Source: Escherichia coli | GTDB taxonomy: Bacteria > Pseudomonadota > Gammaproteobacteria > Enterobacterales > Enterobacteriaceae | Length of the DNA stretch: 64,000 nt | Direction: 5' to 3' (one strand) | Assembly: GCF_050920415.1 (NCBI RefSeq) | Contig: NZ_CP169309.1 | Part shown: positions 2,238-4,130 of the stretch, one piece after another | How the letters are laid out: each line of letters starts with the position of its first letter | How positions within the stretch are numbered: position 1 is the first letter of the stretch | The notes under the pieces: generated by a model | Told to the model about the DNA's origin: nothing | What the model saw: the letters and a program-made list of their open reading frames with translations, nothing else | The model's database searches: none | Program-made: the position numbers and the translations under genes

Positions 2238-4130
2238 TTACATCACCAGACGGCGAATGTCAGACAGCGTGTTGTTAATGATGGTAATGAAACGGGCACC
2301 ATCAGCACCGTCGATCACGCGGTGGTCGAAGGAGAGAGAAATCGGCAGCATCAGACGCGGCACGAACTCTTTACCATTCCACACCGGCTCCATCGCGGAC
2401 TTGGAAACGCCTAGGATAGCCACTTCCGGCGCGTTCACAATCGGCGCGAAGTGGGTAGTACCCAGGCCGCCGATGCTGGAGATGGTGAAGCAACCGCCCT
2501 GCATTTCGCCCGCAGTCAGCTTACCGTCACGCGCTTTCTTAGAAATAGTCATCAGCTCGCGAGACAGCTCGATGATGCCTTTCTTGTTGACGTCTTTGAA
2601 TACCGGAACAACCAGGCCGTTCGGGGTATCCACCGCCACACCGATGTTGATGTATTTCTTCAGGGTCAGACGCTGACCGTCTTCCGACAGAGAACTGTTG
2701 AAGCGAGGCATCTGCTCAAGTGCCGCAGCAACGGCTTTCATGATGAAGACAACTGGGGTTATCTTCACATCCAGCTTACGTTTCGCTGCTTCTTCGTTCT
2801 GCTGTTTACGGAACGCTTCCAGCTCAGTGATATCGGTTTTGTCGAAGTGAGTAACATGCGGGATCATCACCCAGTTACGGCTCAGGTTCGCACCAGAGAT
2901 TTTCTGGATGCGGCCCAGTTCCACTTCTTCGATTTCACCAAACTTGCTGAAGTCCACCTTCGGCCACGGCAGCATGCCAGGGATACCGCCGCCAGTTGCC
3001 GCCGGAGCCGCTTCTGCACGTTTGATCGCTTCTTTCACGTAAGCCTGAACGTCTTCGCGCAGGATACGACCTTTACGGCCAGTGCCCTTCACTTTCGCCA
3101 GGTTAACGCCAAATTCGCGTGCCAGACGGCGGATCAGCGGAGTCGCGTGAACGTAAGCGTCGTTTTCAGCAAACTCAGATTTGCCTTCTGCTTTCGCAGC
3201 CGGTGCTGCTGCCGGAGTTTCAGCTTTTGCTGCCGGAGCCGGCGCTGCCGCTTCCTGTTTCGCAGGAGCTGCCGCAGGTGCTGCGCCTTCAACTTCGAAG
3301 ATCATAATCAGCGAGCCAGTTTTCACTTTGTCGCCAACGTTGACTTTCAGTTCCTTCACGACGCCTGCAAACGGAGCCGGAACTTCCATAGAAGCTTTAT
3401 CGCCTTCTACGGTGATCAGTGACTGTTCAGCGGCAACTTTGTCGCCCACTTTCACCATCACTTCGGTCACTTCAACTTCGTCACCGCCGATATCCGGAAC
3501 GTTAACTTCTTTCACGCCAGCCGCTGGTGCAGGGGCCGCTGCCGGAGCCGCTTCCTGTTTAGCCGCCGGAGCTGCCGCGCCTGCTTCACCCGCGACTTCG
3601 AAGACCATAATCAGCGAGCCGGTAGACACTTTGTCACCCACGGTCACTTTGATCTCTTTCACGGTGCCTGCAAACGGAGCCGGAACTTCCATAGAAGCCT
3701 TGTCGCCTTCTACGGTGATCAGCGACTGTTCAGCTTCAACTTTGTCGCCCACTTTCACCAGGATTTCGGTCACTTCGACTTCATCGCTGCCGATATCCGG
3801 AACATTTACGTCTTTTGCCGCCGCAGCCGCGGGTGCTGCTGCCGGAGCTGCTTCTTTCTTCTCTTCTGCCTGAGCAGGTGCAGCGTCAGCTGCACCGTCG
3901 GCGGAATCGAAAATCATAATCAGTGCGCCGGTCTGGGTTTTATCGCCAACAGAGACTTTGATCTCTTTAACGATACCCGCCTGCGGAGACGGTACTTCCA
4001 TAGAGGCTTTGTCGCCTTCTACGGTGATCAGCGACTGTTCGGCTTCAACTTTGTCGCCCACTTTGACCAGGATCTCGGTGATTTCAACTTCATCAGCCCC
4101 GATGTCCGGTACTTTGATTTCGATAGCCAT
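2238..4130 (-). CDS. aceF: Dihydrolipoamide acetyltransferase (E2 of pyruvate dehydrogenase), three lipoyl domains
   Basis: 630 aa ORF; three tandem lipoyl domains (..[11 protein letters not shown].. three times) separated by Ala/Pro linkers, then catalytic domain. Confidence 0.97.

Follow-up and report, generated by a model that had tools for sequence, protein, structure and literature searches.

Three lipoyl domains, an internal DNA repeat and by-product antisense open reading frames in the aceF gene of Escherichia coli

The aceF gene and its genomic setting

The window, the whole stretch of 64,000 nucleotides of E. coli DNA that was analysed, carries on its minus strand the aceF gene (2238..4130), which encodes dihydrolipoyllysine-residue acetyltransferase (E2p), the E2 core of pyruvate dehydrogenase, in its standard three-domain form (630 aa plus stop). 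The assignment draws on the ORF itself and on Pfam, NCBIfam, PDB and RefSeq evidence, and the RefSeq annotation places aceF at exactly 2238-4130. The gene lies in its normal context, in the operon order pdhR-aceE-aceF-lpdA, with all members on the minus strand and identified from their ORFs, Pfam and RefSeq. At the operon head stands pdhR, encoding a GntR/FCD-family repressor (6969..7733), followed by aceE (E1p, 4145..6808), whose ORF is located 14 nt upstream of aceF, while lpdA (E3, 489..1913) is the downstream operon partner. Elsewhere the window consists of core chromosome that is ordinary for E. coli, with leu, thi, ara, polB and the dcw cluster.

The profile searches assigned the product to the E2p equivalog family, as NCBIfam NF008814 was matched with 1099.1 bits (cutoff of 722), aa 1-630 being aligned to profile positions 1-637, and the model for the 'long form' of E2p, TIGR01348, gave 1038.8 bits (cutoff of 552.1). 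The scores obtained with the equivalogs of the 2-oxoglutarate counterpart, SucB (E2o), were below their cutoffs (NF004309, 349.1 versus 449 bits; TIGR01347, 322.9 versus 378.65 bits), and the gene therefore falls outside those families. The solved full-length chain of E. coli E2p (PDB 7b9k_A) matched aa 1-630 with 1319 bits. At the DNA level, the gene shared 100% identity with the aceF of E. coli MFDS1022581, a finished chromosome (NZ_CP169399.1); over its first 32,250 nt, the window differed from that chromosome at two positions. The 1893-nt gene was present at full length in 5423 of the 5424 matching complete E. coli genomes, and nine of the 5424 records were at least 99% identical to the allele found here.

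Domain architecture of AceF

In a Pfam search, the 630-aa AceF protein gave three Biotin_lipoyl stretches (PF00364, E = 3.9e-67) and a single match each for E3_binding and 2-oxoacid_dh. DKA motifs occur exactly three times in the translation, at aa 40, 143 and 244, with the lysines K41, K144 and K245, so that the number of lipoyl domains proposed in the initial annotation was borne out by both counts. With the domain and linker limits set in this study, lipoyl domain 1 spans aa 1-76 (3903..4130, minus strand, as are all the features of AceF given below; Pfam Biotin_lipoyl and the DKA motif at aa 40-42), with the K41 codon at 4008-4010. It is followed by linker 1 (aa 77-103, 3822..3902), lipoyl domain 2 (aa 104-179, 3594..3821; Pfam and DKA; K144 codon at 3699-3701), linker 2 (aa 180-204, 3519..3593), lipoyl domain 3 (aa 205-280, 3291..3518; Pfam, DKA and PDB; K245 codon at 3396-3398) and linker 3 (aa 281-325, 3156..3290). 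The innermost lipoyl domain's structures (PDB 1qjo and 2k7v) matched aa 206-284/293. The linkers were delimited by composition and were confirmed to be Ala/Pro-rich and GC-rich, as had been described earlier: the Ala+Pro content was 67%, 76% and 60%, and the GC content 66.7%, 74.7% and 61.5%, for linkers 1, 2 and 3, respectively, against approximately 12% Ala+Pro and 50% GC in the lipoyl domains. The lipoyl-plus-linker region (aa 1-325), which makes up the 5' half of the gene, thus occupies 3156-4130, and the span of 3170-4130 previously given for it corresponds to aa 1-320.

The C-terminal half comprises the peripheral subunit-binding domain (PSBD; aa 327-362, 3045..3152), recognised by Pfam (PF02817 E3_binding, E = 1.8e-16) and by PDB matches (4qoy_E, 8oqj and 9h1n), and the catalytic acetyltransferase core (aa 399-629, 2244..2936; PF00198, E = 2.4e-80; PDB 4n72). 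The catalytic DHRxxDG pattern is present as the active-site motif DHRVIDG at aa 602-608 ([12 protein letters not shown] read in translation). In line with established knowledge, the AceF core builds the 24-mer of the pyruvate dehydrogenase (PDH) complex. The lipoyl domains would serve as swinging arms, by which acetyl groups and reducing equivalents are moved among the active sites of E1, E2 and E3 (PMC8421416). We infer the covalent lipoylation of the three lysines, the acetyl-transfer activity and the mobility of the domains from homology to the characterised E. coli protein and from the literature (PMC8421416). In E. coli AceF, the triplication of the lipoyl domains is already known; it is textbook material and a classic case of modular enzyme design.

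The internal repeat and its divergence

The lipoyl domains are reflected in an internal DNA repeat that is far beyond chance. The repeat search placed three in-register copies of 300 nt at 3232-3531, 3535-3834 and 3844-4143, spaced by 303/309 nt, and TRF reported a single array (3295-4109; period of 303, 2.7 copies, 80% matches, score of 883). The internal repeat of about 300 bp proposed in the initial annotation was therefore recovered as three tandem units; its description as near-identical segments was overstated. The pairwise identity between the lipoyl domains was 75-85% for DNA and 74-84% for protein, the whole repeat units (domain plus linker) were 70-80% identical in DNA, and the longest exact tracts common to the units measured 32-33 nt. 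The three E. coli lipoyl domains have been published as 73% identical (PMC8421416), in agreement with the protein values obtained here. The repeat of approximately 303 nt is the trace of an old domain triplication, the copies of which are at present 75-85% identical.

The degree of residual similarity was evaluated at positions where the amino acid is the same in two paralogous domains, the number of codon differences being compared with that expected from independent draws from the codon usage of the operon. Fewer differences than expected were observed for each pair, namely 18 versus 27.3 for domains 1 and 2 (L1-L2), 19 versus 26.0 for L1-L3 and 14 versus 30.7 for L2-L3. The lipoyl copies therefore retain residual DNA similarity, which is strongest for domains 2 and 3. 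The L2/L3 similarity is compatible with a later L2/L3 duplication as well as with occasional gene conversion.

Origin of the long antisense open reading frames

Two long ORFs had been noted over aceF and were described as alternate frames of the gene. Both exist (3181..3873, 230 aa; 2451..3422, 323 aa; from the ORF list), but both are antisense, on the plus strand, while the alternate sense frames of aceF contain at most 55-58 open codons. Neither is a gene or an effect of the linkers; both are non-coding and follow from codon bias and amino-acid composition.

The 2451..3422 ORF runs codon-for-codon opposite aceF. Stops in this frame need the sense codons TTA, CTA or TCA, and the ORF is open because only two of the 630 codons of aceF are of this kind. 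These two codons form its bounds: CTA (Leu573) at one end and, at the other, TCA (Ser237, 3420-3422, in lipoyl domain 3), which supplies the stop. In simulated recodings of the protein, the codon-for-codon frame contained 2 stops with the codon usage of the gene itself versus 15.9 with uniform synonymous usage, and the mean longest open run dropped from 409 to 140 codons. The same relation was seen in the 25 genes of the window, in which the length of the antisense open runs tracked the usage of TTA+CTA+TCA. These codons amount to 0-4.2 per 1000 in ftsZ, aceE, aceF and lpdA versus 57-59 per 1000 in hofC and ddlB, and elsewhere in the operon antisense ORFs of 757 aa (aceE) and of 285 and 167 aa (lpdA) were found. 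A strong codon bias, with TTA, CTA and TCA nearly absent from this highly expressed operon, accounts for the 2451..3422 ORF.

The 3181..3873 ORF lies in the antisense frame offset by one (+1), where stops need a Tyr codon, or a His/Gln codon that follows one ending in T. There is neither Tyr nor His in residues 1-325 of AceF, and for this reason the frame is open. The recoding simulation gave 4.0 stops with own codon usage versus 4.1 with uniform usage; the stop count is thus the same under any codon choice, and the frame is governed by the amino-acid sequence only. The ORF ends at the TGA at 3871-3873 (plus strand), which arises at Ala86-Gln87 (GCT CAG) inside linker 1. The composition of the whole lipoyl-plus-linker region, free of Tyr and His, explains this second ORF.

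The GC-rich codons of the Ala/Pro linkers had been named as the cause of both ORFs, an explanation that we regard as very unlikely. The linkers, at 62-75% GC, are indeed almost stop-free in all the antisense frames (0, 0.01 and 0.01 stops per codon), and they add passively to the 3181..3873 run, 34% of which lies over linker. However, the other 66% of that ORF lies over lipoyl domains 2 and 3, the three lipoyl domains without linkers contain no stop in its frame (227 codons, wholly open), and the single stop that closes it sits within a linker. Only 13.9% of the 2451..3422 ORF lies over linker, 86% being non-linker and half lying over the catalytic domain. When all three linkers were deleted in silico, open runs of 290 and 227 codons remained, versus 335 and 238 codons in the native gene, and antisense ORFs as long or longer occur in aceE, lpdA and ftsZ, all of which are devoid of such linkers.

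It is still less probable, to an extreme degree, that one or both of the ORFs are real overlapping genes opposite aceF. Their length and the presence of start codons are what would speak for this, but their length is no greater than codon usage and composition yield: in simulated recodings that keep the protein and the codon usage, the longest run averaged 409 and 317 codons, against 335 and 238 codons observed, and antisense openness scales with codon bias across the window. A Pfam search of the 3181..3870, 2451..3419 and 4286..6556 ORFs returned no family, and the RefSeq annotation has no plus-strand feature over these ORFs. The product of 3181..3873 would be a low-complexity Ala/Gly/Ser/Thr sequence, a mirror of the sense repeat. 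Long antisense ORFs over aceF, aceE, lpdA and ftsZ are best read as signatures of codon bias and composition, which helps in the triage of similar flags raised in genome scans.

Length variants and recombination products

The variation of the domain number between species, proposed from the outset, agrees with the literature, in which an E2 chain is given between one and three lipoyl domains depending on the species (PMC8421416, PMC6270654); an explicit comparison lists one lipoyl domain for Bacillus, two for Delftia and three for E. coli K-12 (PMC10579247). Among the database proteins, complete-looking forms with two motifs were named for Brenneria, Chania and Serratia, as single entries that need not represent a species norm. 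A search with the C-terminal half returned many proteins with intact N- and C-termini and a core 96-100% identical, which contained only two DKA motifs, together with one protein with a single motif. The best 120 matches of this search included no 630-aa protein and were skewed to shorter ones, and they show the existence of variants rather than their frequency. When the full-length protein was the query, 39 proteins with four motifs (723-738 aa) ranked ahead of the normal form.

The variant joins were mapped by explicit breakpoint scans together with an offset-identity scan, and they fell into two breakpoint classes: in one, linker 2 was joined to linker 3 at varying positions, and in the other the join was in register and lay inside the conserved core of the domain. 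The 525-aa allele of Shigella flexneri has the structure L1-linker1-[L2/L3 hybrid]-linker3, which is explained by an exact in-register deletion of 303 nt, its crossover falling at approximately nt 420-455, in the core [12 protein letters not shown], and by a separate 12-nt deletion in linker 3. A single-deletion model for this allele left 64 residual mismatches and was replaced by the L2/L3 hybrid plus the 12-nt deletion. The allele was found in at least three independent assemblies with slightly differing aceF DNA, and on one contig of more than 1 Mb. Two strains from Taiwan, 463 and 446, carry an out-of-register deletion of 192 nt (64 aa) between two VGDKV-coding motifs, their DNA being identical and their protein filed under one accession. 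Smaller changes affected the linkers, namely an expansion of linker 1 by 9 nt (AAA) in NZ_AP025220.2 and a 12-nt deletion (APAA) in linker 3 of strain X14-3.

The four-domain alleles had the architectures L1-L2-[L3/L2]-L3 and L1-[L2/L1]-L2-L3, as would be expected of the reciprocal products of unequal crossing-over. The 731-aa form was present on contigs from different samples and different assemblers, and a 725-aa form in CP006575.1, a finished chromosome of S. Pullorum. One-, two- and four-domain alleles may occasionally arise from unequal recombination between the repeats. Exact tracts of 33 nt or less are near the minimum for efficient RecA-dependent exchange, which is consistent with the rarity of the variants. 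A literature search for spontaneous recombination of the aceF repeats, with the classical engineering work of Guest, Perham and co-workers outside its reach, yielded only point and frameshift mutants of aceF and nothing about the number of domains. Among the two- and four-domain alleles taken from short-read or metagenome assemblies, some could have been created by the assembler, since de Bruijn graphs may skip the exact tracts of 23-33 nt shared by the repeats or loop through them.

The frequency of the variants was estimated in complete E. coli genomes. The intact linker1-domain2-linker2 stretch was found in 5,420 of 5,423 genomes, a query that cannot reliably flag joins between linkers 2 and 3 since about 80% of it is retained in them; a query centred on domain 3 was therefore added, and the intact linker2-domain3-linker3 stretch was found in 5,419 of 5,423 genomes. 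Both counts are to be read for alleles other than four-domain ones of the [L2/L1] type, which these diagnostic queries would miss in complete genomes. The exceptions among the E. coli genomes included the 192-nt deletion of strains 463 and 446 and a linker2-linker3 join in OZ039611.1. With a four-domain gene as the query, no single-piece match was obtained in the complete E. coli genomes; one record in the band of at least 99% was probably a 96-nt remnant in the engineered strain JCL301. Three domains are thus kept in more than 99.9% of finished E. coli genomes, and the variants are real but rare. The suggestion that the array gains and loses domains by recombination held as far as two- and four-domain hybrid alleles do occur in public data, but 'prone to' was too strong for structural variants making up less than 0.1% of complete E. 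coli genomes. Dave, Guest and Attwood (1995, cited in PMC10579247) are said to have reported a growth cost when the number of lipoyl domains was lowered, and the retention of three domains fits such a cost.

Tandem repeats are open to mis-assembly and variant copy numbers are present in public assemblies, but the chance that the triplication in the window is itself an assembly artefact, or a copy number unusual for the lineage, is practically negligible, given the full-length gene in 5423 of 5424 matching genomes, the 100% identity to a finished chromosome and the match to the solved 630-aa chain 7b9k.

Discussion

The presented data identify the locus as E. coli aceF with triplicated lipoyl domains, by-product antisense ORFs and, in public data, rare recombination alleles. 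Nothing found spoke against the identification. We put the probability of this explanation as a whole at about 97%. It is documented that the repeat gives rise to length variants, and it may plausibly cause assembly errors in public data; an AceF protein of about 525 or 731 aa should first prompt a check of the assembly.

A wider reading, for which we see about even odds, is that the lipoyl array of aceF is naturally copy-number-polymorphic in wild Enterobacteriaceae, the one-, two- and four-domain hybrids being genuine, reciprocal outcomes of unequal crossing-over at the 23-33-nt tracts, some of which persist in lineages. If so, the number of swinging arms of PDH would be tuned or relaxed in particular niches rather than fixed at three. 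The S. flexneri sublineage with L1-[L2/L3], the 731-aa form of E. coli with L1-L2-[L3/L2]-L3, S. Pullorum CP006575.1 and strains 463 and 446 are the examples to which this polymorphism would apply.

Among known systems, the closest is AceF of E. coli K-12 (7b9k, 4n72 and 1qjo), which is the same gene, with 630 aa, the same operon position, the same domain order and three DKA sites. In comparison to the K-12-derived C600 allele, aceF of the window differed at 45 of 1893 nt (2.4%), and the proteins differed in two residues, N163T in domain 2 and A305T in linker 3. The length variants of Enterobacteriaceae (S. flexneri, 525 aa; E. coli, 731/733 aa; S. Pullorum, 725 aa) share a C-terminal half 96-100% identical and the same operon context; they differ by the loss or gain of one repeat unit, with a hybrid domain at the junction, whereas the window carries the standard three-domain form. 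E2p of Azotobacter vinelandii (1eaa, 1dpc and related chains) is likewise from a Gram-negative bacterium and forms a similar cubic 24-mer core, its catalytic domain matching with approximately 285 bits. It also carries three lipoyl domains. It belongs to another genus, however, its sequence identity is much lower, and the matched solved chains cover the catalytic domain only. SucB (E2o) and E2p of Geobacillus/Bacillus (3duf) follow the same modular plan of lipoyl domain, PSBD and catalytic domain, but with one lipoyl domain in place of the three found in AceF of the window.

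Copy number of lipoyl domains in AceF

Departures from the three-domain, 630-residue form of AceF were found in both directions. Independent Shigella flexneri assemblies repeatedly carried a two-domain AceF (positions 3001-4578 of the retrieved loci L005-L007) with a hybrid domain fused from parts of lipoyl domains 2 and 3, and a finished chromosome of Salmonella Pullorum (CP006575.1; positions 1501-3678 of the retrieved locus L012) encodes a four-domain AceF. Four-domain aceF alleles, the reciprocal hybrids, were also found in E. coli isolates and in metagenomes. The two-domain alleles of S. 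flexneri and the four-domain alleles of S. Pullorum, E. coli and metagenomes may all be real, or they may in part be assembly artefacts.

A further form, of 566 residues, was encoded by the finished genomes of two E. coli strains from sputum in Taiwan, strain 463 (L004, 2333-4033) and strain 446 (L014, 1018-2718), which share an identical protein (WP_418509931.1). The underlying 192-nt deletion is out of register and lies between the second VGDKV of domain 2 and the first VGDKV of domain 3. Two lipoyl-lysine motifs consequently lie only 37 residues apart within a chimeric domain, which is probably unable to fold normally.

The protein database was also searched with residues 322-630 of AceF, and the 630-residue protein was absent from the best 120 matches. 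Proteins of this length exist by the hundreds, and their C-terminal halves should have scored equally well; the ranking of candidates seems biased towards shorter proteins. The best 120 matches of this search cannot be used for frequencies.

Antisense reading frames

The ftsZ gene (23355-24506, minus strand) contains no TTA, CTA or TCA codons, and therefore its codon-for-codon antisense frame is open over the whole gene, at 384 codons. Codon bias likewise yields the 'long ORFs' opposite aceF, aceE and lpdA; within the window, ftsZ shows this effect in its most extreme form.

Comparison with the closest genome and other E. coli

The closest public record to the window was NZ_CP169399.1. The hofC gene (14101-15303) is annotated there as a pseudogene, interrupted by an internal stop, whereas the window copy translates without one; at position 14819, within hofC, the window has G and NZ_CP169399.1 has A. 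The window thus derives from a very close relative rather than from the NZ_CP169399.1 assembly itself. The two sequences also differ in length by an in-frame 15 nt at the start of thiP (approximately 54093), where NZ_CP169399.1 carries a tandem duplication (GTTAATTCCCGGCTG GTTAATTCCAGG) and the window a single copy.

The aceF allele of the window (2238-4130) was uncommon: among 5424 E. coli records, just 9 matched it at 99% identity or more; most records, including K-12, Nissle and O157, were 97.3-98.3% identical to it. In the E. coli genome searches, 2 of 5426 genomes had no aceF match, and in six or seven places the matches were located on plasmids rather than chromosomes. At the protein level, AceF of the window differs from that of K-12 C600 by N163T and A305T, with no other changes.
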